Of a stretch of 64,000 bases of DNA, positions 26,303 through 54,049 are shown piece after piece. Numbering within the stretch: position 1 is the first letter of the stretch; every line of letters begins with the position of its first letter. Position numbers and translations under genes: made by a program. The notes beneath the pieces were generated by a model that was not told where the DNA came from, did no database searches, and saw nothing but the letters and a program-made list of their open reading frames with translations. Origin of the DNA: Nitrospirota bacterium (GTDB taxonomy: Bacteria; Nitrospirota; UBA9217); NCBI GenBank assembly GCA_963818475.1, contig CAWFSF010000006.1:1056001-1120000 (forward strand), in the 5' to 3' direction.

Positions 26303-26423
26303 CGAGCCACTTTCATGCCCGATCGGCTCTCGTCAAGAGTGAACAGGCTGGATTTAAGTGGGTAAACTTTTGTCGAGGGTGACATTCCTATTCACAAACC
26401 AAGATGATCATGCACGCCACCGG

Positions 26424-27566
26424 CTAGTGAAAGGTTTTATTGTATCTTTCGAGGGAACAGGATGAACCGAATTTTTGTAATTTTGCGATATCGAACGTAA
26501 AATCTTTCTTTCTGATTGTGGCTATCTTGACTGCTATATCAACAGAATTCCTTGGTTCTACCAAGGCACCGAAGCCCGTCTCAAGAACTACGGTACGAAC
26601 ACCCGGCAGGTCAGATGCGATCACCGGCGTTCCGCAAAGCATTGCCTCAACCTGTACCATGCCGAATGATTCAAGAGGGTCGATGCTCGGCAACACTAAT
26701 ACGTCGATCATGCTGTAAAATTGAACCAATTCCCTGTCCTGCAAAAAACCTGTAAATACTATTTTAGTTGGATATAATTTGAGGTACTTGCTCAAGTCGT
26801 CTTTAATCGTTCCGCCGGCAATGTTTTTATCTTCTCCAGCTACGATGATAACAAAATCACCGATCTGGTCCTCCAGATAAGGGATCGCATCAAACAAGAA
26901 TTTGAGGCCTTTCTCATAAACTAGTCTTCCGACAAAACCGATTTTGTAGCTCTTGGGGTTAATGGAAAATTTTGTTAGTAAATTCTGATAATCCAAATTT
27001 TGCTTTTGTGCGTGGCGTATTGAGCGTATTGGCGGATAAATTTCTACAGCTTTTTGAGAGTATTTTTTCATGCGAGAATGGTGAAAGTAATCCAAACTGT
27101 TCACGACCACAACTCGAGATTTATTTAGGACTAAATCCATCAGCCGATAAGATATTGTCTCAAGAATATTATTTAACATACCCTTACCGAGATTCAAGTC
27201 GCAATGGTATGTTGTAACGAGCTTTTTTGTTTTAATAAAAAGACATGCCAATCCCGCGTCAATCATAGGCAAGTGAAAATTAATTATGTCATTTCCTCTT
27301 GAGAGCCGTATGATGTTCAGCCAAAAAGTAGGTGCTATGACCCCCTTCCCCATGTGGGCGATCACTGGCACCCGGACTACATTAACTCCGTTAATGCAGG
27401 AAGACCTCGGTAGCATAGCATCATATCTCGTGGTCAACACTGTTACAGAATGACCTTCACGCGACAAACCTTCGGCCAATTCCTTTGCATAATTGGAAAG
27501 ACCGCTGACGTAGGGGTGATAATAATAAAGAACGATCAAAATGGATTTTTTCAATGGTGTATTCAT
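26424..27566 (-). CDS. GT4 glycosyltransferase
   Basis: FVGRLVYEKG, VLPS...ESFGMVQVEAM.CG.PVIASDLPG. Confidence 0.92.
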   Translation of the reverse strand: MNTPLKKSILIVLYYYHPYVSGLSNYAKELAEGLSREGHSVTVLTTRYDAMLPRSSCINGVNVVRVPVIAHMGKGVIAPTFWLNIIRLSRGNDIINFHLPMIDAGLACLFIKTKKLVTTYHCDLNLGKGMLNNILETISYRLMDLVLNKSRVVVVNSLDYFHHSRMKKYSQKAVEIYPPIRSIRHAQKQNLDYQNLLTKFSINPKSYKIGFVGRLVYEKGLKFLFDAIPYLEDQIGDFVIIVAGEDKNIAGGTIKDDLSKYLKLYPTKIVFTGFLQDRELVQFYSMIDVLVLPSIDPLESFGMVQVEAMLCGTPVIASDLPGVRTVVLETGFGALVEPRNSVDIAVKIATIRKKDFTFDIAKLQKFGSSCSLERYNKTFH

Positions 27567-27587
27567 CGATTTCGTGATCTACAGTCT

Positions 27588-28937
27588 TCAGTTGCCGTCA
27601 AGAACATGTTCTTTTTTACCTGTCAACACCCGATCCACCGCCTCGACCCCCTGCATGAAAGAATGGTCCATATTGCCGACCTCGTATTTCCAGGCTCCGA
27701 AACGACCACGAGAATACACACCGTGCGATTCCAGGTAAGGCTGAATCACCGCGAGTGCCGCATCCCTTCCGAGAGTGGGAACAGGGTAAGAGTACGGTAT
27801 ATCGATGACATACCGGGACAGGAGGTCCGTCAGCTGGTTTTCCCCGATCATGGCTGAGTTGATCAAACCTTGAATGGTTTCTTCGACTATGGTGCCTTTA
27901 TTCACTTGTTTATACGAAGAATAGGTAGTCTCGCCCATCAGAGAGAAGTGGCGGTCTATATCACCATCAGGCACATTGTAAGGAGAATAGTTGTGAAAAT
28001 TAGTGACCCGGTAAAAGGGAGCATTGCCTTCAGGGAAATACATCCAGCACTTAGAGTCCGTGCGCTTGCCGGAGAAGCCAAGGCCGACAATCAGTCCGCT
28101 GTTGTGAACCAATTCCCGTGCCTCCATTCGCACGTTTTCTGATACATCAGAGCAGAGCTGCACGAATAGGTCAAGGGGCATGGTATTAATGAGAAAATCA
28201 TACGTTTCACGACGGCCATTGGAAAACTCTATCGTTTTATCTCTGAGACTGACGCGGGTGCATTTGTGATCGTATTGGATATGTTGACCGAACGGGCGGG
28301 CGATACCGCTGAAGATTGCTCCTGTCCCTCCTCTTTTTGGAAACTTGAACTTGTTATTCGGCCCCCAATTCACATCATTCCTTCCCTCAGCGATGTTTCG
28401 TTCCACGCGGTCTACATCCACTACGCTGACGCGTTCGTTTATCCAGTTCTTGCTCAGGGAATCCAGCGGCAGGCCCCATACTTTTTTGTTATAGGGCTCC
28501 ATGAAGTACTTCACGATACCCTTGCCGAAGACCGCCTCTATCCATTCCTGGAAATTCGCCGATCTTCCGATATCTGAATTCCGACTTCGTAGACCGACCA
28601 GGCATTCGCGTAATGCACTTTCTGGGAGATGGCGAATATTGTTTTGGAATGGATAAGGCACCCACGTGTTCAGGATGCGTATCCAGCTTTCTCTTTGGTG
28701 TTCATAGTAATTTAAACCGAGGGCTTCGGATATAGCGCTGTCAAAGTAGGGATAATGAGAAAAGAGGACATGTCCACCGACGTCCCAGGTAAAACCATGA
28801 GCATCAAGGAAAGATGCAGAAAGGCCGCCGGCGTGATCAGTGCGTTCAAAGAGTGACCAGTCTTTATAGCCAAGTTTATGAAGATGATAGGCAGCGCCAA
28901 GCCCGCAGGGACCGGCGCCGATAATGAGAATTTTCAA
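27588..28937 (-). CDS. FAD-dependent protein resembling eukaryote-type UDP-galactopyranose mutase
   Basis: GAGPCGL, GFTWDVGGHVLFSHY, WVPYPFQNN, PYNKKVW, WGPN..F.FP..GGTG, FYRVT...NYSP, YSYP.P, RGRFGAWKYEVGNMDHSFMQGVE. Confidence 0.78.
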   Translation of the reverse strand: MKILIIGAGPCGLGAAYHLHKLGYKDWSLFERTDHAGGLSASFLDAHGFTWDVGGHVLFSHYPYFDSAISEALGLNYYEHQRESWIRILNTWVPYPFQNNIRHLPESALRECLVGLRSRNSDIGRSANFQEWIEAVFGKGIVKYFMEPYNKKVWGLPLDSLSKNWINERVSVVDVDRVERNIAEGRNDVNWGPNNKFKFPKRGGTGAIFSGIARPFGQHIQYDHKCTRVSLRDKTIEFSNGRRETYDFLINTMPLDLFVQLCSDVSENVRMEARELVHNSGLIVGLGFSGKRTDSKCWMYFPEGNAPFYRVTNFHNYSPYNVPDGDIDRHFSLMGETTYSSYKQVNKGTIVEETIQGLINSAMIGENQLTDLLSRYVIDIPYSYPVPTLGRDAALAVIQPYLESHGVYSRGRFGAWKYEVGNMDHSFMQGVEAVDRVLTGKKEHVLDGN

Positions 28938-29024
28938 TGTTACTTCTTCCCCTTCGTATGACTGGAAATCATAGTATGATTATCTCCATCCCTGTTAGGT
29001 TGAAAGGCTCCAGATTCGTCCGGA

Positions 29025-30380
29025 TTACGTTATTTCAAAAACGCTGCCGGACGTTTCGACCATGAGCGTTTTTATGAACTCCCGAGCGACATAATCTGTA
29101 TCGAGCAGCGTCCCGGGCGGTTCGTTGCCGAAGTTTCGATATCGCATCGGTGTGTTGACCCGTCCCGGGCTCACAACGTTCACCCGGATATTCCATGGAG
29201 ACAATTCTTCGGCCAGGGCCTGGGAGAAATTGACCAAAGCCGCTTTCGAACTGCTGTAGGCGGCATACCCTTCCCTGCCGCGGGTGTAGGAACTGGAACC
29301 GACATTGAACAATGCTCCTTCTTTCTGAGCTTTAAATATCGGAATGGCCGCCTTCGCAACGAGAAAAGCGCCCATGACATTTGTATCATAAATATGACGC
29401 CACTCGTCTTCGGACACATCTTCCACGTGCTTCCTGATCATATCTCCCGAACAGTTGATTACAAAATCGATTTTTTTCGCCTCCTTGACGACCCTGGTAA
29501 AGCCGTCCCGGATTGAGGCTAAAGATCTTACATCAACGGATGGGTCGGTAGAACGGCTGAAGGAGTATACCCGCGCAGCAAGCCCTTGGAGGTTCTCGAC
29601 AAGTTTCAATCCTATTCCGCTCGTCCCGCCGATAACGACACACACCTTGTTCTTCATTGAAGTCACATCAGCGGCCGCCTCTCCGCCTCGAGACTTCAAC
29701 TGAAACAGCTTGTCTGCAATATGAAGATCGAGTGGATAGGTTATTTTTATGTTCTGTTCGTCACCCGACACAACAAAAACCTTATGGCCAAGCCTGTGAA
29801 CGAGCGAACAGTCATCGGTTGCATTTTCAACGCTTTCCTGAACAGCGCGCATATGTGCTTTGAGAAGAAGCTTGTATTCAAATGCCTGCGGTGTTTGGCC
29901 ACGTCGAAGACGGGAGCGTTCGGGAATATTCGCGATAAACCCTTCCGGGCTCACCTCAACAATTGTATCTGCCGAAGGAATTACGGTATCAACAGCACTG
30001 TGCTCTATCACGGCATCGATCATCCTATCGATGATCACGTGCGTTATAAACGGCCTGACTGCATCGTGTGTCAGCACATATTCCGTATCGGCGCCGCAAC
30101 ATTCGATGCCTATGCGTGAAGACTCCTGCCGGGTAGCGCCTCCGACTACAACCTTGATGATTTTTCGAAAGCCGTAGTGCGAGACATATTCCCACATCTC
30201 GTCAACATACTCCTGTTGCGTGACAACCACGATGCCGGAAATGCGACGGCATGACTCGAACACTTTCAAAGTGTGGACAATGACCGGCAAGCCAGCCAGT
30301 TTCACAAACTGTTTCGGTTTCCAGTCGTTAAAACGACTGCCCGATCCTGACGCCAGGATGACCGCCTTGACGGTATGCAT
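29025..30380 (-). CDS. Bifunctional IspD/TarI-type cytidylyltransferase plus SDR reductase (Bcs1/Acs1-like CDP-polyol synthase)
   Basis: ILASG.G.R....PKQF, HDAVRPF, QTPQAF, NIKITYP.DL; then GGTSGIG, YSSSKAA, VSPGR.NTPMR. Confidence 0.88.
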   Translation of the reverse strand: MHTVKAVILASGSGSRFNDWKPKQFVKLAGLPVIVHTLKVFESCRRISGIVVVTQQEYVDEMWEYVSHYGFRKIIKVVVGGATRQESSRIGIECCGADTEYVLTHDAVRPFITHVIIDRMIDAVIEHSAVDTVIPSADTIVEVSPEGFIANIPERSRLRRGQTPQAFEYKLLLKAHMRAVQESVENATDDCSLVHRLGHKVFVVSGDEQNIKITYPLDLHIADKLFQLKSRGGEAAADVTSMKNKVCVVIGGTSGIGLKLVENLQGLAARVYSFSRSTDPSVDVRSLASIRDGFTRVVKEAKKIDFVINCSGDMIRKHVEDVSEDEWRHIYDTNVMGAFLVAKAAIPIFKAQKEGALFNVGSSSYTRGREGYAAYSSSKAALVNFSQALAEELSPWNIRVNVVSPGRVNTPMRYRNFGNEPPGTLLDTDYVAREFIKTLMVETSGSVFEIT

Positions 30381-30381
30381 T

Positions 30382-31131
30382 TCAGCTGACTCCTTTATGT
30401 CTCCTCAATGAGCTGAGAAACATTACATTAAGCATGAGAATAAGAACGAGAGCAAGAATGTTCGCTGCAACAAGGAACGGAACAACCATGTTTAGGATGG
30501 GACCGATGACAAATACCAGGCTATCCAGCTCGATATCATGATAATAGGACATCATGTTCCGCTTTGATGTAAAGTCAAACCATCGTGCAAGGAGACTGCT
30601 CCTTGTTGTTTCTCGAGCGAGCTCCATGCCCACTTTACTTTTGCCTCCTGCCTTGAGAATGGCTGTTTCCTGCGCAGCTCTCGTAAACAAGATCAGATTG
30701 TTCAAACCGAGGTAAAGGAGGAGGAAAAACACAACTGAGATGCCTCCCGAAACACTGAATTGTCCGTATGCCAGTGCTGTTGATGTCATCACAATTCTCA
30801 AGCGGTCCAACATCGGGTCAAGATAAGCACCCAACGGGCTGGCCAATCCCTTGACGCGTGCGATGGTCCCATCCACGCAATCAAAGAGGTAATTGATCTC
30901 GAAAAATATGGCTCCCAGAACAAGTCCAAGGCGACTCCCCCAGGCAAAACAGACTGCCGAGAATAAGACGAAGGCGAAAGAGCCTATCGTTATTGCATTC
31001 GGAGTGATTTTGGTTCTATTAATGAAGAAAAGCGAGAGTCTGCGTGCCGCAGGGAGAACAAAGAGCATTGCCCACCACGATTTTCGCTGAAGCTTTGATT
31101 CTATCTCTTGAAGTGTATAATTACGATTCAT
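30382..31131 (-). CDS. CDP-alcohol phosphotransferase family membrane protein
   Basis: ITPNAIT and DCVDGTIAR-x8-GAYLDPMLDR signature. Confidence 0.88.
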   Translation of the reverse strand: MNRNYTLQEIESKLQRKSWWAMLFVLPAARRLSLFFINRTKITPNAITIGSFAFVLFSAVCFAWGSRLGLVLGAIFFEINYLFDCVDGTIARVKGLASPLGAYLDPMLDRLRIVMTSTALAYGQFSVSGGISVVFFLLLYLGLNNLILFTRAAQETAILKAGGKSKVGMELARETTRSSLLARWFDFTSKRNMMSYYHDIELDSLVFVIGPILNMVVPFLVAANILALVLILMLNVMFLSSLRRHKGVS

Positions 31132-32276
31132 TGCACCTGACTCTCTGAAAGAGTAGAAAAGAGTTTTTCGTACTCGCCGACCATACGATCCAGAGAATAC
31201 CGTTCAGCCCGTAAACGGCTTTTTGACCGATAGTGGTCACGCTTGCCCGGTTGAGAAGCGACTTCCAGGATCGCAGCGGACAATGCCGTAATGTCACCCG
31301 GCGGCACCAACAGGCCGTACTGTCCATTGTCTAGAATTTCAACAGGACCATCAGATGCTGTTGCTATCACGGGCACTTTCAGCGCTAACGCCTCCAGCAG
31401 AACTGTCGGAAATGCTTCCCATCGCGATGGAAGAACAAGAAAACCAGCATGTTTCAGCATGCCAAAAGGATTCTCGAGATTGCCCGTGAAAATGACTCTA
31501 TCTTTTAATGACAAACATTGTGCCAAATCTGAAAGATACTCGCGCAGACTTCCCTCACCTACGATGACAAGTGAATGAGGTATCTTTGACGCGATATTTG
31601 CATATGCCCGAATGAGATCGGTATGTCCCTTTTCGGGCTCCAGCCTTCCAATAGAGATAATATAAGGAGATTGCGTATATGCGAATGTGACTTCTCTTGA
31701 GGCATCTTCAATTCTTCTGATGTCTATGCCATTATAGATGAGCTCAATCCTGTCCGCTGCAATTCCAAGATGCGAGCCGATCTCTTTGGCCATAAGTTTC
31801 GATATGGCAACGACCCGATCTGCTTTTCGAAATAAATAAGAGGTAATCAGTTTTTTGAAAGTTGCAAAAATATTCTTAAATGTTGATGCCTTAACAAAAA
31901 CATTCACGGGAAGATGAAACTCGACAATAAGTTTTCCTCCGTTTTTATGAATAACGCCCGCGACAGAACATCCCAGGATACCCGCAAACCAGTTATCTGT
32001 AACAACTGTGTGCGGTTTCTCGAAATCGATAATCTTCGCAAACAGAGCCGAATAGCGCAGCACCCTGAAAGGAAATTGAAAAGCGTTTCCCTGCTTACCT
32101 TGCAAGGTTTTGACGACGATATCGCTGGGAATGCTTGCGCGCAGTGGTCCTGATTCATCCAACACCACGATAAGCGCTTCAAAACGTGTTTTATCAATGC
32201 GATTCAGCATTGATAGTGTGAGTTTCTCGCCTCCGCCCATCCTAAAATCGCGCATGAGAAAGAGTATCTTTTTCAC
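31128..32276 (-). CDS. GT4 glycosyltransferase
   Basis: GGGEK, IYNGID, GRLEPEKG, LPSRWEAFPTVLLEA. Confidence 0.92.
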   Translation of the reverse strand: MKKILFLMRDFRMGGGEKLTLSMLNRIDKTRFEALIVVLDESGPLRASIPSDIVVKTLQGKQGNAFQFPFRVLRYSALFAKIIDFEKPHTVVTDNWFAGILGCSVAGVIHKNGGKLIVEFHLPVNVFVKASTFKNIFATFKKLITSYLFRKADRVVAISKLMAKEIGSHLGIAADRIELIYNGIDIRRIEDASREVTFAYTQSPYIISIGRLEPEKGHTDLIRAYANIASKIPHSLVIVGEGSLREYLSDLAQCLSLKDRVIFTGNLENPFGMLKHAGFLVLPSRWEAFPTVLLEALALKVPVIATASDGPVEILDNGQYGLLVPPGDITALSAAILEVASQPGKRDHYRSKSRLRAERYSLDRMVGEYEKLFSTLSESQVQ

Positions 32277-33346
32277 CGGTGCCTCAATTTAGATCTTATA
32301 ATTTTAAAGCGAGGTTGAATGATTGAATATTTGGCCATGTTAAATAGAAATCTGACTATAAATGCCCCTTTCATTTTGAAATCCGCCCTTGATAATCCTC
32401 CTAGTTGCGAGCTACAGAGTAAATACCAGAAAGGGTAAAATATACCGACTGACCTTCGGCATACTGATAAGTATTGTTCCATCAGACAATATTCAAAAAA
32501 GGGCGATTTAAAATACTTCACATGCTTATTGGCTTCATATAGTTTACCAAGCCAGTCTTCGGTTTCTTTGATAAAGCTTTCATCGCTTGCGCAAGTAAAC
32601 TTCGCCATACTCCTATGTATATTCATTTCTCTCTCTGCAGGTTTAATATTAATCGATTCCAATTGAGTGCGCATAATCTCTCTGACATAAATTTCAATAT
32701 TGCTTGAATTAACAAACGAGATACTGTTCGGATGGATTCTGTACTTGACAAGGACTCTTTGTAAATTCCACACACGCGCGTTTCTTGCCACTCTCACCCA
32801 TAGATCGTAATCCTCGGCACCGGGATAATATCGGTAATGATCTTCCGGCAGGGCACTTTTTCTGATAATCACTGCAGATTGAGCAAAATAATTATGAAAA
32901 ACAAGAAGGGAGGGGATTCTGTCAGGAGGAGCAGTAAATATCTCAAATTTACCAGTCGGTCTGCTCTTCTCATCAATCATTTCTATCCATGCCCCAACCA
33001 TGCCGAAAGAGGGATTCTTATCAAGGAATGCAATCTGCTCCGCAAGCCTGTCGGGATAGGCAATGTCATCACAATCAAGTAAGGCGATGTATTCGCCTCG
33101 AGCATTTTTCAACCCCGTGTTTCTTGCAGCAATCAAACCAAGGTTAGCGCCATTATCGATCAATCTAATCCTTGAATCATTATAGGTTTGAATGATATCG
33201 AGGCTTCTGTCAGTAGAGCCATCATTAACAATCAATAGTTCAAAATCGGCAAAGGTCTGCTGCAATACGCTTTCTATTGCCTCCCGCAGGAATCTTTCGC
33301 CATTATAAACCGGCATAATGACACTTACCCTTGGTCCTATTCGCAT
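32273..33346 (-). CDS. GT2 glycosyltransferase
   Basis: VSVIMPVYN, NDGSTD, ARNTG, LDCDD, AEDYDLW. Confidence 0.93.
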   Translation of the reverse strand: MRIGPRVSVIMPVYNGERFLREAIESVLQQTFADFELLIVNDGSTDRSLDIIQTYNDSRIRLIDNGANLGLIAARNTGLKNARGEYIALLDCDDIAYPDRLAEQIAFLDKNPSFGMVGAWIEMIDEKSRPTGKFEIFTAPPDRIPSLLVFHNYFAQSAVIIRKSALPEDHYRYYPGAEDYDLWVRVARNARVWNLQRVLVKYRIHPNSISFVNSSNIEIYVREIMRTQLESINIKPAEREMNIHRSMAKFTCASDESFIKETEDWLGKLYEANKHVKYFKSPFFEYCLMEQYLSVCRRSVGIFYPFWYLLCSSQLGGLSRADFKMKGAFIVRFLFNMAKYSIIQPRFKIIRSKLRHR

Positions 33347-33379
33347 ATATTATGACCACAGGGGAAAGCTGAGAGAAGG

Positions 33380-33499
33380 CCCTGCGTCTCAGCTTTTTCC
33401 CAGTTGCAGAATGTTTGCACTATAACGCTCTTCACGGCATGAACCAGATATAATGAGCTATTATAAACAAGGGTTATGACGCTGAACTTTGGGATGCGC
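33380..33499 (-). pseudogene. Decayed 5' fragment of a GT2 gene
   Basis: RIPKFSVITLVYNSSLYLVHAVKSVIVQTFCNWE resembles a GT2 N-terminus and then loses similarity; no DxD domain follows. Confidence 0.55.
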
Positions 33500-34393
33500 T
33501 CAAACACTGGATTTTTTTTGCATAGACCGATAGCCGAGATAAAATGCGATCGTATGTAGATAATTGAGAATAAAGAATGTAAACGCCTCTGCCATGCCAA
33601 CCTTTCTGACGTAATCGAACAAAAATCTTCGAACTGAGCTTACGCCTGTAACTGTCCTCAAAAAAGAGCATTTTCGCTGGGGGAATTCCGGCCACTTACT
33701 GAGCAAGATCCCGTATCCTTTCCCATGTACGAAAAACATTCTGATCATGCTTCTTAAAGTAGTTCTGTGGGAGTGGATCACAACAGCATCCCTATCGTAT
33801 TCGAACCGATATCCTTTTTTCAGCATTCGATAACACAACTCGGGATCCTCCCCGCCGGGCCGAAGGAAATCCTCGTCAAAATAGCCCGCCCTGACCACGG
33901 CCTCCTTTGCGAAGAAGGCATTTGCTGTAACCAAATAGGAAATCTCATCGGTCCCCTTCCCAGGGCTCCATACTCCGATGTGGTCGAGATATTTTGTTAC
34001 CAAGGTCACGGTATCGGGAAAAACCTTACCGCCCACCCCGCCTAATTTTTCATCAGGAAAATGTTTAAGGTAGTAATTAACTATGCTTCTATCCACAAAA
34101 CAATCGGAATCGATGCTGAGGAGATATTTACCTCGTGCTTGCCGTATGCCGGCATTTCTGGCGGCTGCTGGCCCCCTGTTTTCCTGATAAACATAGTGCA
34201 TATTGATCTTCGTCCTGTACATCAATCGACGGACAAATTCTCCGGTCCCGTCCTGGGAGCCATCGTCCACAATGATCACCTCATAGTTTTCTACCGGATA
34301 ATCTATCGCCTCAACCGAATGCAAGTTCTTCTCAAGGCTTCTAAGATCATTATAGCTAGGGATAATGATACTCACTTGTATATTCTTATTCAT
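33500..34393 (-). CDS. GT2 glycosyltransferase
   Basis: VSIIIPSYN, DDGSQD, GPAAARNAG, IDSD, GGEDPEL. Confidence 0.92.
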   Translation of the reverse strand: MNKNIQVSIIIPSYNDLRSLEKNLHSVEAIDYPVENYEVIIVDDGSQDGTGEFVRRLMYRTKINMHYVYQENRGPAAARNAGIRQARGKYLLSIDSDCFVDRSIVNYYLKHFPDEKLGGVGGKVFPDTVTLVTKYLDHIGVWSPGKGTDEISYLVTANAFFAKEAVVRAGYFDEDFLRPGGEDPELCYRMLKKGYRFEYDRDAVVIHSHRTTLRSMIRMFFVHGKGYGILLSKWPEFPQRKCSFLRTVTGVSSVRRFLFDYVRKVGMAEAFTFFILNYLHTIAFYLGYRSMQKKSSV

Positions 34394-34429
34394 AAAATAA
34401 TTAAATTGCCCTAGATTCGGGCCATAACT

Positions 34430-35215: not shown

Positions 35216-35272
35216 GCCTCATAACGGTACCAGATATGGCTCATCTCGTTATTTATTATCGCTTCTGACACT

Positions 35273-36124: not shown

Positions 36125-36151
36125 TATTTATTAGCTCATCATCGTAATGTT

Positions 36152-36958: not shown

Positions 36959-36978
36959 TTTTCGTTCTCCAAAACCGA

Positions 36979-38667: not shown

Positions 38668-38735
38668 TCTATCTCCTTAATTCTCAACCTCATACTTCTT
38701 CGATCTTTTACCTCATAGAAATGCACTTTTCTCTA

Positions 38736-39365: not shown

Positions 39366-39369
39366 GACG

Positions 39370-41000: not shown

Positions 41001-41079
41001 CGGTATTACCTTTCTTTCCCCCTGGAAAGTCAGTTTCAACGTGCGTTCTGACGGCCCTATTCTCAGCGGATGGACCTCA

Positions 41080-42096: not shown

Positions 42097-42121
42097 AATT
42101 TCAAAAATGGAGAAAATGGAA

Positions 42122-42991: not shown

Positions 42992-42993
42992 CG

Positions 42994-44019: not shown

Positions 44020-44046
44020 GTCCCATAAACCATGGCATATAAGTCT

Positions 44047-44811: not shown

Positions 44812-44840
44812 TCTTAACTCCTAATTTTATTTCTCCGATA

Positions 44841-46139: not shown

Positions 46140-46143
46140 ACAG

Positions 46144-46971
46144 TCACACCACATCCGCAAAAGAACGTTCCATGCTTCTAAAATAGAACACACCGCCAAT
46201 GAAGATCAGCATCATCAACGACATTGAAATCAATATACCCGGCCAATATACTGGAAAAGCATCACCCAGGATCGCCCACCGAAATCCGTCTATTACCCCT
46301 GCCATGGGGTTTAAAAAGTAAAACGGCCGCCACTGTACAGGAACGATGGCACTGGTAAATCCCACCGGGGAGATATAGAGGCCAAACTGGACCATGAACG
46401 GGACGACATAGCGAAAATCACGGTATTTGACGTTAAGTGCCGAAAGCCATAATCCAGCGCCAAATGCCGTCAACAGCGTCATTAAGAGAAAGCAGGGAAG
46501 CAAGAGCATTCTGATTCCCGGAATGAAATGATACCAGGCCATCATGCCGAATAACATGACGAATGATATAAAAAAATCTACCAAGTTGACGATAACAGAG
46601 CCGGCGGGCACGATCATTCTTGGGAAATAGACCTTGGTCAGCAGGTTCGCATTATTAATGAGAGAATTACTGCTTTCACTGAGAGAATTGGTAAACAATT
46701 GCCACGGCAACAAGGCTGCGAATACCATAACGGGGTAAGGAACGCCGTTCGAAGGCAGATTCGCCAGTCTTCCGAACACAATTGTCAAGACCAGCATGGT
46801 CAGGAGTGGTCGCAAAATGCTCCAGGCAATGCCGATTACCGTCTGTTTATAGCGAACCAGGATATCTCGCCATGCCAGGAAAAAGAACAGTTCACGATAG
46901 CGCCAGATATCCCTCCAGTAATGAAGAGCGCTCATGCCCGGCCGGATTATGATCTCAGGCAGTTCATCCAT
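46144..46971 (-). CDS. wzm: Glycan ABC exporter permease (Wzm, XapG position)
   Basis: RDILVRYKQT..G..W, KVYFPR, YRDFRY, NPM.GVI.GFR. Confidence 0.95.
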   Translation of the reverse strand: MDELPEIIIRPGMSALHYWRDIWRYRELFFFLAWRDILVRYKQTVIGIAWSILRPLLTMLVLTIVFGRLANLPSNGVPYPVMVFAALLPWQLFTNSLSESSNSLINNANLLTKVYFPRMIVPAGSVIVNLVDFFISFVMLFGMMAWYHFIPGIRMLLLPCFLLMTLLTAFGAGLWLSALNVKYRDFRYVVPFMVQFGLYISPVGFTSAIVPVQWRPFYFLNPMAGVIDGFRWAILGDAFPVYWPGILISMSLMMLIFIGGVFYFRSMERSFADVV

Positions 46972-47876
46972 TAACTATACCTGAACCCTTCTTTCTTGAA
47001 CGGCGAAAGGACAACTCCGGCGAGGAATCCTATTCCGAACCTGCCCATCTCACGAAACTTTCTTATCGGGATAAGATAGAGCGGAGCATGACGAGCGCAG
47101 TTAATGATCAGCATTATCCATAGCGCGAGTGGATACCTACTCCTCAAGCGGTAAAATGAGTTACCTACGGCTTTTGGTTTATGAAAAGTTGGCATTATCA
47201 ACGGGGGGTGAAAGTATGTCAATAGTGGGGAAGGCAGAGACGACTTCCCTGCCAGCAAAAATCGAATAAAGAACTCAACATCTTCCTGCCCGATGATGGA
47301 CGAAATGAATCCTCCGAGATCACTGAGAGTCTGTCGTCGATATGCCATGCATCTGTTCGCCGGGAAATAAGAATCGAGATAACTGTATTTCCCTTTCAGG
47401 AGACAATAGCTGGCGTTCCCCAATGGAATAATCCCATCAACGTAATTGGATTTAAACTCTCTTTCCAACGTTGAAAGGAAGTTGGCCTGTAAAATGACCG
47501 TATCGTCATCAAGAAACAGAACATACTTACCCGTTGCTTTTAAAAGGCCTACGTTCCTCGAATACCCCATCATCCCGTAGTTTTCTGATAGAGCGTGATA
47601 TTTGACATTTAAGACACGGCTATACCGTTCAGCGACCTCTCTTCCTCGCTCCGTTCCTCCCCTGTCTTCTACCAGGATCACTTCAAAGCCGCTCTGAGGC
47701 ATATCCTGCCCAGCTAAGCTGCTCAAAATACCTTCAAGCAAATCGATCCTTCCGTAAAAATTGATAATGCAGGACACATCACAGCCATCATCTGCACTGA
47801 ACTCGCCGGCGTCGCCTTTCAGCGAAAAGGGGAATAACGCGTAGGCCCAAATAAGGATTTTTTTTCGAAAAGTCAT
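46971..47876 (-). CDS. GT2 glycosyltransferase (XapF position)
   Basis: FEVILVED, SRN.G, FLDDD, GGF...IGQEDVEF. Confidence 0.85.
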   Translation of the reverse strand: MTFRKKILIWAYALFPFSLKGDAGEFSADDGCDVSCIINFYGRIDLLEGILSSLAGQDMPQSGFEVILVEDRGGTERGREVAERYSRVLNVKYHALSENYGMMGYSRNVGLLKATGKYVLFLDDDTVILQANFLSTLEREFKSNYVDGIIPLGNASYCLLKGKYSYLDSYFPANRCMAYRRQTLSDLGGFISSIIGQEDVEFFIRFLLAGKSSLPSPLLTYFHPPLIMPTFHKPKAVGNSFYRLRSRYPLALWIMLIINCARHAPLYLIPIRKFREMGRFGIGFLAGVVLSPFKKEGFRYS

Positions 47877-47932
47877 ATGCCAGTATGCAGTAATTTAACT
47901 GCTCAAGATGTGTACTTCTCCACTTCATTCTT

Positions 47933-48790
47933 CTATTTATAGAGGATCATCCCGGTCATCGCAACCCAGGTGATTCCGGTTACCAGAATATGCTTATCAT
48001 GCAAGAGAACGTCTGTTGGATCGCCTCTGCCCCCTTTCACGATAAAAATATATCTAAGCAGACCATAAGCAGCAACAGGAACAGTATAAAGCATTGGATC
48101 ACGATTTTCAATAATATAGAGAGCATACGTGACAAGAGCGCAAGATGCCATCGACCAGAGCACTCCTTCGAGAAAAGTCAAAGAATAGCGATTCAAGCTG
48201 AGTCTCTGTTTTGCCGCATCTACCTCCAGTGATATGAGCTCGCTCAGCCTTTTACCGGCAGCAAGGAACAGGGCGACGATAAAGACCGTAAGAAAGAGCC
48301 ATTTCGTGACACTGACATGGGAGGCCTCACCACCTGCCAAAACTCTTATCAAAAAACCAAAAGACACAATAAAAATGTCGGCAATGACAATATGCTTGAA
48401 ATAAATCGTATAGCCGAACGTAAGCAGGGTATAAATGATGACTGATCCTTCGAAGCGTTCGGAAACCGAGGCCGATAACAGCATGGACATTAGATAAAGA
48501 AGAGCTGCAAGCAAGCCCGCTACAGGCAGGGAAACGTCACCCCGTGCAATGGCCCGGTCCTTTTTATCCGGATGTTGCCTGTCTGCCTCCCGGTCCGCAA
48601 TGTCATTAATGATGTAGCAGCAACTCGCCGCGCAGGAAAAAGACAGGAACGCCGGTATCAGCGCCGAGACCGAGGCCGGTTCCAGGATCTTCCCACCAAA
48701 AAAAGAGGGGAAGAGTAAAAGCAAATTCTTCAACCATTGATGAGGTCTGAGAATCGACAGATATTTATTTATTATTTTTAATACGTTCAT
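47933..48790 (-). CDS. UbiA-family polyprenyl-phosphate phosphoribosyltransferase (XapE position)
   Basis: LRPHQWLKN, YIIND..D...DR.HP.K..R.IA.G, K...I.D, GF..RV.AG, GKR..E. Confidence 0.88.
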   Translation of the reverse strand: MNVLKIINKYLSILRPHQWLKNLLLLFPSFFGGKILEPASVSALIPAFLSFSCAASCCYIINDIADREADRQHPDKKDRAIARGDVSLPVAGLLAALLYLMSMLLSASVSERFEGSVIIYTLLTFGYTIYFKHIVIADIFIVSFGFLIRVLAGGEASHVSVTKWLFLTVFIVALFLAAGKRLSELISLEVDAAKQRLSLNRYSLTFLEGVLWSMASCALVTYALYIIENRDPMLYTVPVAAYGLLRYIFIVKGGRGDPTDVLLHDKHILVTGITWVAMTGMILYK

Positions 48791-50540
48791 GTTTTTCGTT
48801 GGCAGCGAACCGGGTAATTTGTTTTCTGACGCGCAGCTTATTGGGGTCCTCCGGTCGCATGCTGTCAAATGTTTTGCGGTAAAAAGAAAGTGCTTTCTGG
48901 CTTTGGCCCAAAGACGCAGCGTCGTTGCCGATTTTAAACAGCAGGTACGGATCGTGAGTAAGGTCGTATAACTTTATGTTATACGATAGTGCATTTTCCC
49001 CGAATTTGTGTCTCTCATGAGCGTCCGAACTTTCATCCTTTTTGAATTCATACAAGGATGCCAACTTCCGTAAAGCTTCGATTGAATGCCTTTTTTTTTC
49101 AAGCACAGATGTATAGAGAGCAATAGATTCATCGATCCTGCCTTGTTTGGCTGCAATAAAGGCCCTCTTCGTATCATACGTTTCATCATAAACGCCAATA
49201 AGGGGAAAGGAGCTTCCCTCCTTTAACTGCACCAAAGCCTCGTCATATTCACCTCTTCCGATAAGCATTGACGCATACACAGAGCGCATAGCTCTTGAAT
49301 GCGGTGATTTATCGACAGTATCCTTGACTAAAAGAAAATCGTTTTGCCACACAATGCTTCTACTAAGAGTCGTTGCGAACATTACCCCGACTATGACTGA
49401 AAAAGCGACTGTCATCCCCATGATGCTGAGACCCATCAACCTCCTGCCCATATACATGCCAGCGGCTGTGATAATAAAAGCTGACGATATATATATATAT
49501 CGTTCAGCGTAAGGCGTCCATGCTATTTGGCCGAATGCTAAAAGATATGCAGGCACGGTAAGAAATATGCCGGTAATGAAAAAAGCTGATATGGTCGTTC
49601 GACGGAGTGCGATATACCCGCACAATGCTACCAGAGGAACGGCAAGTATCTGGTACAGAGGGTCAACCTCCATAATGGCTAAATTGAGAGGTACGGGCAT
49701 GACAAGTTTTTTCATATAAAAACCAAGGGCACGCAGGCAGACGAACATGCTGTGAATCCAGTCAACAGTAATGAATCTAATTGTCATGCCGATTCTGCTT
49801 GAGTTACTGGTAAAAGCCGCTGACCGGAAAATAAAAAACATAAATACTACCGCCATAACACCGACCATGACCAAATTGTTTTTCGAACGAAGATTCCAAC
49901 GGGACGATTTCATTTCTTGACAACCCGTTCTGTCCTCTTGGTCATGAGAGCTGATCAGAAAAAAAGCGCCTGGTAAAAACGCAAGAGCTGTTTCTTTGGA
50001 AAGAACCGCGCAAAAAAAAGCACCTAACGATACAGCGAGGTGCTTTTTGCTGTTATGTTCCTTATATCGTAAGAGGAAAAGCGCGCTCAGCAAGACAAAC
50101 GCTCCGGCCAGCAGATCGAATCTTCCTGAAATCCAATTTACTGATTCGGAGTTGACCGGATGCAAACCGAACAATAACGCGGTCATAAGAGGAAAGGGTG
50201 ACTTGCTGCGATCCGACGAGGATACAAGATGCAGCGTCAGCATATACACAAGAACGGCATTGGTTATGTGGATTAGAATATTTTCCAGATGCATCAGGCC
50301 GGGCTGAAGGCCGAGCAGATATTTATCAATACGAAAACTGATGTCTACTAGGGGACGGTAATAGCCGCCACCGCCATGAGACGGGAAAAAAACTGACCAC
50401 AAGTTCCAGCCACTCGACTGTTCGAGTCTCGTGAACAACGAATAATCGTCGATCTTGGAAACGCCGGCCAGGACGGCGGGATAATATACGGCCAGCACGA
50501 CGGTAATCAGGAGCAGTATTTGATACCGTCTGGTCAGCAT
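48765..50540 (-). CDS. GT-C fold, TMTC-like membrane glycosyltransferase with C-terminal TPRs
   Basis: DD in the first loop, YYRPL, LFGLHP...ESV.WISGR.D.L, LSKE.A, AERY.Y, R..VW.ND; about 11 TMs; TPR tail. Confidence 0.82.
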   Translation of the reverse strand: MLTRRYQILLLITVVLAVYYPAVLAGVSKIDDYSLFTRLEQSSGWNLWSVFFPSHGGGGYYRPLVDISFRIDKYLLGLQPGLMHLENILIHITNAVLVYMLTLHLVSSSDRSKSPFPLMTALLFGLHPVNSESVNWISGRFDLLAGAFVLLSALFLLRYKEHNSKKHLAVSLGAFFCAVLSKETALAFLPGAFFLISSHDQEDRTGCQEMKSSRWNLRSKNNLVMVGVMAVVFMFFIFRSAAFTSNSSRIGMTIRFITVDWIHSMFVCLRALGFYMKKLVMPVPLNLAIMEVDPLYQILAVPLVALCGYIALRRTTISAFFITGIFLTVPAYLLAFGQIAWTPYAERYIYISSAFIITAAGMYMGRRLMGLSIMGMTVAFSVIVGVMFATTLSRSIVWQNDFLLVKDTVDKSPHSRAMRSVYASMLIGRGEYDEALVQLKEGSSFPLIGVYDETYDTKRAFIAAKQGRIDESIALYTSVLEKKRHSIEALRKLASLYEFKKDESSDAHERHKFGENALSYNIKLYDLTHDPYLLFKIGNDAASLGQSQKALSFYRKTFDSMRPEDPNKLRVRKQITRFAANEKHERIKNNK

Positions 50541-51409
50541 TCATTTCCTTTAACAATATCCAGAAAAAACGACTCCAGGTCTTTTCGTTTCGGTTCGATG
50601 AAAACGATCTCACTTCGTGAATCAAGGATTTCTTTCATGAACTTCGGCAGATCGTCCTTCGGCACGTAACGATCAAACTGAAGCCCCGGCTCATTTCCTT
50701 GAAAACGCACTTGATACCCCATCAGTCCCTCGGCCATAATGGAGTCAATCCGTTTCACGTCGCGCAGGGAGCCTTGCAGGACGATCCCCACCCGGTCGCA
50801 GACCGCTTCCACGTCCGACGTGATATGGGTGCTGAAGAAAACGCATTTGCCTTTTGCCCGGAGATCGAGGATGATCTTCTTGATGAGCGCCCGGCCCAGA
50901 GGGTCAAGCCCGCTCATCGGCTCATCCAGAACGTACACGTCCGGGTCATGGATCAAAGCTTGAGCAAGACCGAGCCTTTGCACCATTCCCTTGCTGTACC
51001 CGCGGAGAGCGCGATCCCGGGCGTCCCACAGCTCCAGGAGCTTCAGCAATTCTTCAATTTTTTCACCCACCTGCCCTTTATTCATGCCGAATGTTCTGGC
51101 GACGAACAATAAATACTCACTGGCCGTCAAGTAGTCATAGTAGGCGGGGTTTTCCGGCAGGTAACCCACCTGTTTTCTTCCAAGATGCGATCCCGCATCA
51201 TGCCCCATGATCCTCGCCTGTCCCGCTGACGGCCTGATCAACCCCATCAAGATCTTGATGGTTGTTGTCTTCCCGGCACCGTTTGGACCCAGAAAGCCGA
51301 ACACTTCCCCTCGATCCACGGTAAGCGAGAGGCCCTTTAACGCATTGACTTTATTTCCCCTCTTCCCGGGGAACGTCTTCTCTATTTCCACAATTTCGAT
51401 CGCGTTCAC
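50534..51409 (-). CDS. ABC transporter ATP-binding protein (XapD/PilH-like)
   Basis: GPNGAGKTT, YSKGMVQR, LDEPMSGLDP, STH. Confidence 0.93.
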   Translation of the reverse strand: MNAIEIVEIEKTFPGKRGNKVNALKGLSLTVDRGEVFGFLGPNGAGKTTTIKILMGLIRPSAGQARIMGHDAGSHLGRKQVGYLPENPAYYDYLTASEYLLFVARTFGMNKGQVGEKIEELLKLLELWDARDRALRGYSKGMVQRLGLAQALIHDPDVYVLDEPMSGLDPLGRALIKKIILDLRAKGKCVFFSTHITSDVEAVCDRVGIVLQGSLRDVKRIDSIMAEGLMGYQVRFQGNEPGLQFDRYVPKDDLPKFMKEILDSRSEIVFIEPKRKDLESFFLDIVKGNEC

Positions 51410-51444
51410 AGGTTTATCACCTCACCTACAACAGGAAAAAAAAT

Positions 51445-52302
51445 TCATTTACCATTTTTATTCGCAACGTTGAAAGCGAATTTACTCGTGCTGCGCACTT
51501 TGCCCGTTGAATCAATATAAAACTTACCGCCGTAAGGGTCAACAGGAAATTCCTTGAGATATCCTTTCTGAACAAGTTCTTCCAATGACCGCGGATGCCG
51601 ATGATACTTGCCGGAAAAACGATCTGCTGCCCGCTCTATCGTTCTGACGCCCTGAAAGGCCAGCAAGCGGGTTTGCAAAGATTTTTTGACTGCTTCGTTC
51701 GAGGAGCTCTTCGCCATCAGGGAAAGATACGATATAGCCAGGTCTGTCCTTCCGGATTCATACATGTATCTGCCGGTCAGATTGATGATAAGATTGTCTC
51801 CCGTCAGATCGGCCACCCGCTTATAACACTCAGCCGCTTTCGCGTAATCCTTCAGAAAATAGGCATAGTTAAAGCCGGCAAAATACGGCAGGTAGAAATC
51901 CCATGTCCGGTACCGCATCCCGTACTCCAAAAGCCTATTGGTCGCCCTGACCTGCCTGGCATCCCATACCATGACCGCCTGGGCAAAATAATAGGCATCC
52001 ATATTGTAGGGGTCCAGTTGAACTGCTGATTCAATCATTTGCTGCATGGCGGGATATTCAGGTGGAAGAGAGACCTTGTTCGGTGCCTCCTCCACGAGGC
52101 TCCCGAAATAGGAGATCACCTTCATGAGCAGGGACGAGGCCATGAAACGGGAATGGTCGGCAGATAAAAGCCTGAGTACTCCGGGCTCGGGAGTATACCC
52201 GATCTTCTCCACGAACGGTTTGTTTTTCATGTAGTCAGTAAAGGAGGAAATAATGGCGAGATAGGACAATAGAAGGACCAGCAAAAGGGCGTATTTTCTC
52301 AT
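51445..52302 (-). CDS. Membrane-anchored TPR-like pilin accessory protein (XapA/XapC-like)
   Basis: N-terminal TM; LDPY..DAYY.A, GFNY.YFL.DY..AA; C-terminal P.SLEELV..GYL...P.DPYGG..Y. Confidence 0.7.
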   Translation of the reverse strand: MRKYALLLVLLLSYLAIISSFTDYMKNKPFVEKIGYTPEPGVLRLLSADHSRFMASSLLMKVISYFGSLVEEAPNKVSLPPEYPAMQQMIESAVQLDPYNMDAYYFAQAVMVWDARQVRATNRLLEYGMRYRTWDFYLPYFAGFNYAYFLKDYAKAAECYKRVADLTGDNLIINLTGRYMYESGRTDLAISYLSLMAKSSSNEAVKKSLQTRLLAFQGVRTIERAADRFSGKYHRHPRSLEELVQKGYLKEFPVDPYGGKFYIDSTGKVRSTSKFAFNVANKNGK

Positions 52303-53099
52303 TGCATCTCTCTTCGGGAAAAAATGATGGCGGAAATCGTCAACATACCAGCGGTATAGATAACGAAATACCCCGCCGTCAGCACAAGCCCGGAGCCTGA
52401 AAGTCCGAGCCCGTAGACCGCATTTGCCGTAAGATCGAAAGCGCTGAAGTTCGGAAGAATATAGTAGAGGCCGGCTGTGAGCTTCTTTACAAGGGGGGAA
52501 TATGCCTGGGCCGAAGGGGACCGGAGGAAGTCATATACCTGCTGCGTGGCGCTGCCTGCAAAAAAAACGGCAACGGTCCCGAAAATCGGCAGAAAGAACG
52601 AGGTGCTGACCGTGGACAGGAGGAACGAAACAGCGACCAGGAGAATATACTTGAGTGCAATGAACAAGACCGAAAAAAAGACATTTGTCCAGACAACAGG
52701 GCGCAGCGGCGGATAGATCAGGGAAACGTACCGGACCACGATGCAACCGACCGCCCCCAGCAGCGCAGCGGTGAGAAACAGATAGACCGCGATCCCGAAA
52801 AATTTCCCCAACAGATATGACGTCCTCGTTAGGGGAAGTCCCAGGACGCTATAAGTGTAACGCCGTTCCATGTCCTTCCAGAGGGAGCTTCCCCCCAGAA
52901 AAATGGAAAGGAGCAGCATGATGACCGATATCAAAGAGAGCGTCAAGGTAAGCGAAAGCTCAACGACCTGGCGCATGGAGAGCGAACTGACCGACGGGAC
53001 CAGGAGAAAAAAAAGAGCGCTCATCATGATCCCCTGGAACACGCGGTCCCGGAATATTCCTTTGACTGTTATGACTGTTATGGAAAGAAGCTGCTGCAT
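52299..53099 (-). CDS. ABC-2 permease (XapB/PilI-like)
   Basis: T.KG..RDR, D.E.R..Y..L..P..R..YL.GKF.G, YY.LPN...FD, F.RRE; six TMs. Confidence 0.85.
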   Translation of the reverse strand: MQQLLSITVITVKGIFRDRVFQGIMMSALFFLLVPSVSSLSMRQVVELSLTLTLSLISVIMLLLSIFLGGSSLWKDMERRYTYSVLGLPLTRTSYLLGKFFGIAVYLFLTAALLGAVGCIVVRYVSLIYPPLRPVVWTNVFFSVLFIALKYILLVAVSFLLSTVSTSFFLPIFGTVAVFFAGSATQQVYDFLRSPSAQAYSPLVKKLTAGLYYILPNFSAFDLTANAVYGLGLSGSGLVLTAGYFVIYTAGMLTISAIIFSRREMQ

Positions 53100-53133
53100 C
53101 CGTATGGGCCCCCTGCCGGCTTCCAAAAATCTG

Positions 53134-53168
53134 AAAAAGAAAGGGTTGATTTTCATCAACCCTTTCTT
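53134..53168 (-). terminator. Intrinsic terminator after the two pilin genes
   Basis: AAGAAAGGGTTGAT-GAAA-ATCAACCCTTTCTT perfect 14-bp stem followed by TTT on the minus strand. Confidence 0.85.
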
Positions 53169-53198
53169 AAATTGAGCAAGTTGTACTTACGAAAATGA

Positions 53199-53558
53199 TT
53201 ACTGTGACCAGGTGCCCCCTGTCACTGTCGGCATTGTATTCTCGTCTGCACACTCTGCGATTGCGCTTATACCTGCTGACGACGCGTATGAAATGGTCGC
53301 CGACTCACTGGTTGAAGCAAATTCTTTACCAGCGTCTTTCGTGAGAGCGCTGTTATGGACTGATGCCACGCAATACGAAACTGTGGAAGACTTTACCGAA
53401 ACATAAACGCCCGTGGACGGCGCAAAAATAGCGCCGCCGATAATCGTTGTTACTGCAGCTGTTTCTCCAACTCTTCCATTGAAAATTGCAGCGTGTGCGG
53501 GAACCGCCATGGCAACGAAAGCGATAGCGATGACTATGGCTAATATGCTTTTTTTCAT
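53199..53558 (-). CDS. Secreted Ser/Thr-rich PilA-C-like pilin partner
   Basis: Sec signal ending AHA; GG..F.PST.V.VS, Y.V, F.ST and terminal W.SQ recall Geobacter PilA-C; lies directly downstream of the short pilin. Confidence 0.8.
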   Translation of the reverse strand: MKKSILAIVIAIAFVAMAVPAHAAIFNGRVGETAAVTTIIGGAIFAPSTGVYVSVKSSTVSYCVASVHNSALTKDAGKEFASTSESATISYASSAGISAIAECADENTMPTVTGGTWSQ

Positions 53559-53618
53559 AATATTTTTTCCCCTTATATAGAAATTTGAATTAGTTGATTC
53601 ATGCCGATTGCCCAGCCA

Positions 53619-53822
53619 TTACATCGCGGGGTATGTCTGCGAGTCGGCCTGCTGCGCTTCCATCTGCGTCCTGAGATTCCTCAGATCACTCTCTGCTGCC
53701 GCATTGTATGCCTTAATGCGGTATGCTGCGAACTGCGGGATGGCGATGGCTGCCAGGATGGCGATAATGGCCACCACGATAAGGAGCTCGATAAGGGTGA
53801 AGCCTTTCTGGTTCTTTTTCAT
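53619..53822 (-). CDS. pilA: Short type IVa pilin (PilA-N; 60-aa mature)
   Basis: KG|FTLIELLIVVAII prepilin cleavage site with E5; IPQF..YR.KAYN.AA.SDLRNL.T..E...AD.QTYP; SD GGAGG. Confidence 0.96.
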   Translation of the reverse strand: MKKNQKGFTLIELLIVVAIIAILAAIAIPQFAAYRIKAYNAAAESDLRNLRTQMEAQQADSQTYPAM

Positions 53823-53944
53823 AATGTTCCTCCCATTAGATTGTTTAGATTTCCAGTATAACGTTTAGTCCTTAAGGCTTTTTAATGGGTTTCACCTCCT
53901 TCCAAAGGCCTCAAGATTTTCTGATCTCATATTATGCAGTATTA

Positions 53945-53960
53945 TGCAGATACTGTGCCA
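53945..53960 (-). promoter_or_regulatory. Sigma54 (-24/-12) promoter of pilA
   Basis: TGGCACAGTATCTGCA = GG-N10-GC, about 125 nt upstream of the pilA ATG. Confidence 0.85.
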
Positions 53961-54019
53961 TTGTTTATCATTGTAATTTCAACTGGTTGTGCATAAGGAT
54001 TGCGGATAATTGACCTTGA

Positions 54020-54049
54020 TTGTCACACGTAGGTGACAAAAAATGGCAC
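54020..54049. promoter_or_regulatory. Probable enhancer (PilR-like activator) sites
   Basis: TTGTCAC-N6-GTGACAA palindrome overlapping GTGACA-A5-TGGCAC, 60-90 bp upstream of the -24 box; IHF-like TTTCAActggTTG at 53977-53989 in between. Confidence 0.6.

Follow-up and report, generated by a model that had tools for sequence, protein, structure and literature searches.

The 64,000-nucleotide window analysed here (GCA_963818475.1, contig CAWFSF010000006.1, positions 1,056,001 to 1,120,000) carries a pilA-N/pilA-C gene pair followed by a series of export and glycosylation genes, and this locus belongs to the known Geobacter pilA-N/pilA-C/xap type, met here in a new phylum, where it behaves like a pilin allele that can be exchanged. 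We consider it likely that it encodes the major pilin of the host's type IVa pilus and that replacement from the middle of pilA onwards put a two-chain allele in the place of a one-chain cassette; judged from its sequence, the product is most likely a major type IVa pilin with a variable, probably glycosylated surface. The original prediction, made from the letters of the window, had proposed a Geobacter-type heterodimeric pilin with a xap-like locus, possibly in a non-Geobacter lineage. The system is supported by the matches of both pilin chains and by homology to a G. sulfurreducens-type locus (L188), and the lineage was borne out by PyrG, which is 88% and 82% identical to its counterparts in Nitrospirota/Nitrospiria genomes, compared with 70% in Thermodesulfovibrio, 65% in Desulfuromonadales and 64% in another Nitrospirota, identities that we read as placing the host in Nitrospirota. 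The prediction missed that the block is one of two exchangeable pilin alleles.

PilA-N is a short class III prepilin (G|F1, E5, P22) that ends after the α1 helix. Its closest PDB matches are Geobacter PilA-N chains, and in the alignment with 2M7G 46 of 58 aligned residues are identical to G. sulfurreducens PilA-N, i.e. the 46/60 of the original estimate. At residue 14 all 30 family pilins, including this one, have Ala whereas 16/16 pilins from the Geobacter-related order have Gly, and no second close geopilin was found elsewhere in the host genome. Given its length and this identity, PilA-N might be thought to polymerise by itself into a conductive e-pilus. The published criteria are at least 9.8% aromatics, a gap of no more than 22 residues and an aromatic at position 50 and/or 51 (10.1101/668343); PilA-N fails all three, with 5 aromatics among 60 residues (8.3%), a largest gap of 24 residues and Gln50/Gln51. 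In addition, the PilA-C partner adjoins it and solved filaments hold both chains (PMC12954529). We therefore regard a PilA-N e-pilus as very unlikely. In 10.1101/668343, truncated e-pilins are reported only inside its Deltaproteobacteria cluster.

Direct searches with PilA-C gave little: phmmer against PDB returned nothing relevant, a word-based protein search found a single relative and no Pfam model matched, hence profiles were needed. A 12-sequence PilA-C profile built without Geobacter rows matched exactly three solved PilA-C chains (9EGP_B, E 1.5e-7; 6VK9_D, 4e-5; 7TGG_a, 5e-5), the next match being T. thermophilus PilA4 at E 0.22. The AlphaFold model of PilA-C (pLDDT 80.7) ranked the same chains first in two fold searches with modest scores: Z was 6.4 and 6.3 with rmsd 2.8 and 2.7 Å over 76 and 75 residues, against 4.5 for the next unrelated row, and in Foldseek these chains were the top three, but at E 0.07-0.4. 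Thus, of the two genes proposed to correspond to GSU1496/GSU1497, both match Geobacter chains, PilA-C through profile and fold, and the window resembles in its two-chain pilin both G. sulfurreducens (GSU1496/1497; 6VK9, 7TGG, 2M7G; xap cluster) and the G. metallireducens pilus (9EGP). Predicted as a complex, PilA-N and PilA-C scored 0.55 compared with 0.00 for the best control, with runs agreeing in at least 97% of contacts and partner pLDDT of at least 69. This mark is graded weak: it was attained by 116/157 solved and 2/215 mismatched pairs, scores of up to 0.60 comprise 18 solved pairs plus both mismatches, and the score was likely helped by likeness to solved structures.

The two pilin genes share a reading frame and lie one TAA apart, with a stop-free 60-nt spacer, and the assembly contains indel errors (lipA is frameshifted, a SerA-like/SDR ORF is two genes joined by an indel, and pilB is in pieces). 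A read error therefore had to be tested, as had a recent nonsense fission of a resident one-chain pilin. The split is real. In four other family genomes the pilin stops at residue 60-61 and a related PilA-C follows after spacers of 30-71 nt, and the split architecture is present in six other family genomes altogether. Across 38 split loci the spacer frames are evenly distributed (12/13/13), which also ruled out programmed read-through. An independent contig (X1 record 5, 53148-54187, ~97% alike, 32 substitutions) showed no indel in either gene, in a comparison that covers indels and does not display the stop letters; in lipA, the contig of the same run is one base shorter at 54615. PilA-C has its own Shine-Dalgarno sequence (SD) and, as read by eye from the sequence, a K/K-hydrophobic-AHA signal peptide. 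Fission in place is further contradicted by the score of PilA-C against the profile of resident one-chain heads (1.2 bits), indicating that it was imported, and by every downstream module gene, which is likewise non-resident. A read error at the pilin stop, which the original prediction had also considered unlikely, or a recent fission is thus extremely improbable.

To delimit the block, we compared the window by blastn with two congeners carrying one-chain pilins (G003 and G005). DNA similarity extends to 24079 and is regained at 53676 or 53728, within pilA-N, so that the promoter and the N-terminal half of the helix resemble those of the host and the cassette junction falls within the pilin gene. 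The original bounds needed revision at both ends: the cargo reaches ~24080 and includes a sulfatase gene that had been missed, and the block starts inside pilA-N rather than upstream of it. The claim that the cargo is AT-richer than its surroundings held, GC being 45.5% between 24080 and 53675 compared with 55.3% and 55.5% in the flanks, the lowest of 898 genome windows of 29.6 kb (mean 54.9, sd 2.3). In both congeners the same site, between lon-lipA and GGDEF/PBP1a, holds a one-chain pilin (151/165 aa) followed by ATPase-permease-PilG-like genes and no glycan genes. The lipA-lon neighbourhood, thought to be unusual, is accordingly the normal site of the genus, and it is the content of the cassette that has changed. 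Module proteins are 30-53% identical to those of the congeners and the flanks 70-91%; the permease and the PilG-like protein are 30-32% identical to congeners (permease 31%) compared with 42-63% to Desulfuromonadia loci of the same gene order. These data support acquisition of the AT-rich block. Neither an integrase among the segment ORFs, nor a tRNA (Rfam), nor a flanking repeat was found, which ruled out a mobile-element mechanism; lacking integrase and repeat, homologous replacement is the simplest mechanism.

The distribution of pilin types was examined in 64 family genomes at a threshold of E 1e-16, kin among them not being independent. This pilin is carried by 36 of them: 7 split, 28 one-chain (mostly 151-217 aa; two are frameshifted, and for one the class is read solely from the open frame) and one that runs into a contig end. 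Both forms occur within each of four genera, and Nitrospirota and Desulfuromonadia each hold both types. The module tree was built from 40 chosen rows, and a later one from 22, using loci with all three module genes; the 20 regions from the Geobacter order were a non-random selection, made by pilin frame length. In this tree five of the split family cassettes cluster as a single clade (97/94), nested in a group (100/99) that includes split cassettes of Desulfuromonadia. The majority of the one-chain family cassettes fall with one-chain cassettes of Geobacteraceae, and monophyly of the family was rejected (p-AU 4e-12). The tree of the GGDEF flank is incongruent with it: it follows genera and groups this genome with the congeners that have one-chain pilins (100), and a clade of the three split carriers is rejected (p 7e-4).

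PilA-C and the heads of one-chain pilins are homologous as families: 21 family pilins (f1) scored 20-45 bits with a hidden Markov model (HMM), compared with a shuffle maximum of 12.4 (n=1260), and hhalign gave 97.7% at E 1.5e-12 after an unrelated ORF (L130), present in the profile behind the 20-45 bits, had been removed. The window PilA-C alone scored 8.1 and 1.2 bits against the one-chain head profiles, not above shuffles, and the homology therefore rests on the family; the single-sequence fold of a one-chain congener pilin (pLDDT 47) was too poor for a fold search. A single clade of all split cassettes was rejected (p 7e-4), and on the module tree, whose outgroup loci carry one-chain pilins, the state must have changed three times or more. 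These results speak for repeated fission or recombination rather than an ancestral split, although the module tree may differ from that of the pilin and long branches come together close to the root. Fission has been proposed for Geobacter (PMC5174107) and was questioned in PMC10710030, which left an ancestral split open. We give an even chance to the broader proposal that one- and two-chain pilins are interchangeable cassette alleles moving between phyla by recombination in the pilA helix, each with a matched ABC module and an optional glycan kit, and that the two-chain state was derived more than once and is dispensable for OmcS nanowires.

All eight genes of the xap-locus set (GT-C/TPR, permease, TPR-like, ATPase, UbiA, GT2, wzm and wzt) have homologues in L188, a locus with pilin chains that agree with PDB sequences (7TGG) over the aligned parts. 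With PilA-C included, 9 of the first 10 genes behind pilA-N in the window are homologous to L188 genes (identities in Table 1). The claim that the locus mirrors G. sulfurreducens is right for the gene set and inexact for the order, the GT-C gene being first in L188 and fourth here; an FkbM-family gene follows in both, but the two are not detectably homologous. The window differs from G. sulfurreducens also in its Nitrospirota host, its short leader, Ala14, the lack of an aromatic at 51, the distance to pilBTCSR and its tailoring cargo, which is larger and of another content. The one-chain geopilins that come with an ABC-permease-PilG module (the congeners, which use the same site, and the Geobacteraceae locus L085) are ~70-79% identical in α1 and have a homologous head, and differ in having a single gene, another module order and permease/PilG-like proteins of 28-38% identity, usually without glycan genes; pilins of the G. 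uraniireducens/daltonii type are named in PMC5174107. In Myxococcus, pilA-pilGHI likewise sets a three-gene ABC module behind the major pilin, a likeness by position, the Myxococcus pilin being one-chain; ABC transport by PilGHI was suggested in PMC6060248 without supporting data there.

The remaining pilus genes were found outside the window, as the original prediction had anticipated: pilB-pilT-pilC-pilS-pilR lies ~137 kb away on the same contig, and pilMNOPQ, minor pilins (pilV) with pilY1 and an A24 prepilin peptidase (pilD) are elsewhere in the genome. In none of the mapped family loci is pilSR directly upstream of the pilin (a pilR-like match lies 5.5 kb upstream in L141). A sigma-54 motif occurs at -155 to -199 in 19/30 family loci, those of G003 and G005 differing by 1-2, and the site upstream of pilA would fit control by PilR in trans.

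The genome also holds 84 frames with at least two CxxCH motifs, an OmcS homologue (6EF8, E 2e-106) and OmcE homologues (7TFS, 6e-29; 9YUQ, 3e-34), the latter already noted in Nitrospirota (10.1101/2025.10.22.684050). The two-chain pilin could accordingly act mainly as a periplasmic piston secreting OmcS/OmcE nanowires, as in a model proposed for G. sulfurreducens (PMC10597711), and have been acquired for extracellular electron transfer. Full-length OmcS (E <1e-70) is present in 5/7 split carriers and in 0/5 other genomes of this genus. However, it is also encoded by 8/28 one-chain carriers (12/28 at 1e-30) and was not found in 2/7 split carriers, so that the special tie to nanowire secretion that had been claimed for the locus was not borne out. 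The omcS gene is, furthermore, unlinked to the cassette, a pilB mutant still secreted OmcZ (PMC4974642) and a porin-like route was proposed for OmcS (10.1101/2025.10.22.684050). We consider the piston reading unlikely. The omcS homologue itself (L148:5996-10762, G000:C2) has a PMT_2/TPR GT-C gene upstream and a gene for a 745-aa possible beta-barrel downstream, neighbours whose predicted nature suggests its own glycosylation and export route. Near the OmcE-like genes lies a 2817-aa frame with 48 CxxCH motifs (L150; G000:C6:413969-422419, + strand), and a GT-C/TPR-like frame with 8 heme motifs is at C6:430480-432912.

Behind the ABC module, the UbiA/GT-C pair would, by analogy, likely produce lipid-linked ribose. 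The UbiA gene occurs in 5/7 split compared with 1/28 one-chain carriers. Such a synthase reportedly feeds a GT-C enzyme that acts on pilin. The TfpW-type set consists of phosphoribosyltransferase, DprE1/E2 and GT-C; the window has the synthase, while a PF04030 search for DprE1-type proteins found no match in the host genome, which is 91% complete (the C. glutamicum control was positive), making ribose likelier than arabinose. The cargo further includes four methyltransferases, a fungal-type UDP-galactopyranose mutase, a CDP-ribitol-type pair and a cytidylyltransferase module, at least one of whose partners lies near the cytidylyltransferase in 9/18 long metagenome loci. The predicted undescribed glycan is plausible; the structure and target proposed for it below are putative.

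Wzm/Wzt with a Wzt_C domain plus methyltransferases is the usual set for polysaccharide export, and the glycan genes may be a common type of O-antigen or exopolysaccharide cluster, carried along with the pilin cassette but leaving the pilus unmodified. In agreement with this, the cargo after wzt is wholly different among the window, G065, G014 and L188; the split relatives G071 and G076 lack both glycan genes at the site and a UbiA of this kind; O antigen can be a target of polyprenyl-phosphoribose synthase/GT-C systems (PMC11127046); and the xap genes were described as extracellular polysaccharide genes (PMC9070056), the polysaccharide being a matrix that anchors cytochromes (PMC9070056, PMC4974642). 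On the other hand, the GT-C gene adjoins the split module in most Desulfuromonadia loci and three family loci, usually with UbiA, the GT-C/UbiA pair lies directly behind the pilin in G068 and L038, where the ABC module is absent, and PilA-C is rich in Ser and Thr. We place this alternative slightly below an even chance; it may apply to the wzm/wzt cargo while GT-C and UbiA serve the pilin.

Taking up again the replacement of a one-chain by a two-chain allele, we propose the following course. The block from mid-pilA to 24080, with its matched ABC module and glycosylation kit, would have displaced the one-chain cassette through homologous recombination, with the conserved 5' half of pilA and the lipoprotein/GGDEF flank as anchors. 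Transcription would start from the resident sigma-54 promoter, probably driven by PilR in trans. PilA-N would supply the membrane helix after prepilin peptidase has cut its leader, PilA-C would leave via Sec and restore the head domain by docking on PilA-N, and the filament would be assembled by PilB/C/MNOPQ, whose genes lie elsewhere. UbiA would make lipid-linked phosphoribose, from which GT-C would probably move a sugar, most likely ribose or ribose-5-phosphate, onto the Ser/Thr-rich PilA-C or other surface proteins, and Wzm/Wzt would probably export a methyl-capped polysaccharide with galactofuranose, ribitol phosphate and a CMP-activated sugar acid. Surface variation, e.g. phage escape or adhesion, would be the likely gain. 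In P. aeruginosa, pilin alleles as well as glycans block phage (10.1101/150227), and alternative alleles there (TfpO; TfpW arabinofuranosylation) include some with a phage-protective glycosylation kit and a lipid-linked pentose donor; these vary inside one species and are all one-chain, and the likeness is one of analogy, not of membership.

Several results weigh against this account. Compared directly, PilA-C matches its G. sulfurreducens-type counterpart only marginally (29%, E 4e-4), and the predicted complex, as said, is weakly scored. The pilB of the pilBTCSR cluster is in pieces, probably through an indel error. Tests of the direction of transfer disagree (p 8e-4 with L196; p 0.18 with L196 removed and a mixture model), which makes a Desulfuromonadia donor only a possibility, and old polymorphism with sorting may have acted instead of exchange. 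As to the glycan, G071 and G076 show that the cargo is optional, and neither a flippase nor a phosphoribose phosphatase was identified in the island, a single GtrA gene being on another contig.

A two-chain pilin is usually regarded as a Geobacter peculiarity; here it occurs in a cytochrome-rich Nitrospirota with OmcS and OmcE homologues. Neither the system in Nitrospirota nor cassette exchange was found in a literature search that ran largely without subscription papers, and Nitrospirota pilins may be among those in the supplements of 10.1101/668343. Sister genomes in which a split and a one-chain allele occupy the same site form natural pairs for asking whether the split is derived or ancestral and whether nanowire secretion depends on two chains. 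Interchangeability, if true, settles fission versus ancestral split for the family and makes the xap genes accessory genes of a pilin allele. Since the host is known as an assembly only, and cultured one-chain Geobacteraceae already permit some tests, the gain is limited.

Table 1. Features of the locus and its flanks (positions in the window; percentages are amino acid identities unless stated otherwise).
Feature	Position	Strand	Basis
Sigma-54 (-24/-12) promoter-like site, 159 nt upstream of the Phe1 codon, in the resident (host) part	53944..53960	-	motif
pilA-N, 67-aa prepilin, 60-aa mature α1 helix	53619..53822	-	PF07963; 7TGG_A E 2e-27
pilA-C, exported pilin head domain, 119 aa, 28% Ser+Thr	53199..53558	-	profile and fold matches
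ABC-2-type permease, PilI/xap-like	52299..53159	-	52% to L188 homologue, which has a weak ABC2_membrane match
PilG-like/TPR-like membrane-anchored protein	51445..52302	-	52% to L188; Atlas neighbours hypothetical/TPR
ABC ATPase	50534..51409	-	PF00005; 57% to L188
GT-C-like membrane protein, C-terminal TPRs	48765..50540	-	29% to first gene of L188; PMT_2 clusters among Atlas neighbours
UbiA-family polyprenyl-phosphate phosphoribosyltransferase	47933..48784	-	NF008978 220 bits, cut-off 207; 8J8J E 1e-39; 45% to L188
GT2 glycosyltransferase, conserved beside ubiA	46971..47876	-	PF00535; 53% to L188
wzm + wzt (Wzt_C domain), glycan ABC exporter	44841..46971	-	PF01061, PF00005, PF14524; 64% and 52% to L188
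FkbM methyltransferase, radical SAM/SPASM enzyme, two class I methyltransferases	41080..44811	-	Pfam
Sugar-acid module: NeuA-like cytidylyltransferase, GT2, cyclase family, SerA-like dehydrogenase, SDR, MptE/MAF-like protein	36152..41039	-	Pfam
Methyltransferase, three GT2, one GT4	31128..36124	-	Pfam
CDP-alcohol phosphotransferase + IspD-SDR bifunctional enzyme, CDP-ribitol-type	29025..31131	-	PF01066, PF01128, PF00106
UDP-galactopyranose mutase (27588-28937) + GT4	26424..28937	-	mutase: 4DSG E 6e-127
Membrane-anchored sulfatase-domain protein, last island gene, convergent	24332..26302	+	PF00884; outside congener-shared DNA
Whole replaced segment, 29.6 kb, GC 45.5%	24080..53675		blastn vs G003 and G005
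Flank: HAMP-GGDEF gene + lipoprotein; after the cassette in most family loci	22206..24079	+	GGDEF 88-91% to congeners
Flank conserved in the genus: lipA (frameshifted in the assembly) + lon	54119..57614	-	congener comparison

The genes named in the original prediction (pilin pair, permease, TPR protein, ATPase, GT-C, UbiA, GT2, wzm, wzt and FkbM) are all present on the minus strand in the order given there, and the further tailoring genes, put at about 18, are 17 ORFs representing 18 genes, as the SerA-like/SDR ORF is two. The labels PilG, PilH, PilI and xapA-H were given by position and are presumptive; the ABC ATPase we take, by position and its identity to L188, to be XapD/GSU1501-like. The GT-C-like protein has no Pfam glycosyltransferase match itself. 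The IspD-SDR enzyme, presumably like Bcs1, scored 192 bits with NF001183 (cut-off 166), but passes the IspD model TIGR00453 too. The PDB matches of the UDP-galactopyranose mutase are, we assume, trypanosomal and fungal enzymes. The MptE/MAF-like protein is without a solved relative, and the sulfatase-domain protein, which appears LtaS/OpgB-like, has only an uncharacterised one. Tyr32 of G. sulfurreducens PilA, which we take to bear glycerophosphate, is conserved in the window PilA-N, and speculatively the sulfatase-domain protein could add this group to the pilin.

A 26-sequence PilA-C profile matches 1059 clusters at 50% identity, and split loci were found in Desulfuromonadia, Desulfobacteria, Syntrophobacteria, Desulfovibrionia, Nitrospirota, Nitrospinota and two Betaproteobacteria. 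The latter, Accumulibacter and Azonexaceae (L086:1254-1824, L098:10022-10587), combine 53-aa pilins with a PilA-C-like gene and the same ABC module. A 2.6-kb contig labelled archaeal (L033) holds a typical bacterial split pilin pair and is probably misbinned. Extra unlinked pilA-N copies (L124-L126, L130, L133) occur in G059 and G014, three in each, the pilA-C of one copy being apparently broken by a transposase-like ORF, and G061 has five one-chain copies; such copies are possible reservoirs for variation. The sequencing runs contain a small share of this DNA, and the RNA-run contigs are mostly of other organisms, giving no basis for statements on habitat or expression. The host genome also encodes a Tad-like cluster and a type II secretion system (L156, L153; G000:C2:646-657 kb; C1:206-215 kb). 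Within the window, tRNAs lie at 13689-13774 and from 63950 onward, and on the promoter side of lon there is a frameshift-ridden operon (58260-62811) that we assume, from its motifs, to be formate dehydrogenase-like.

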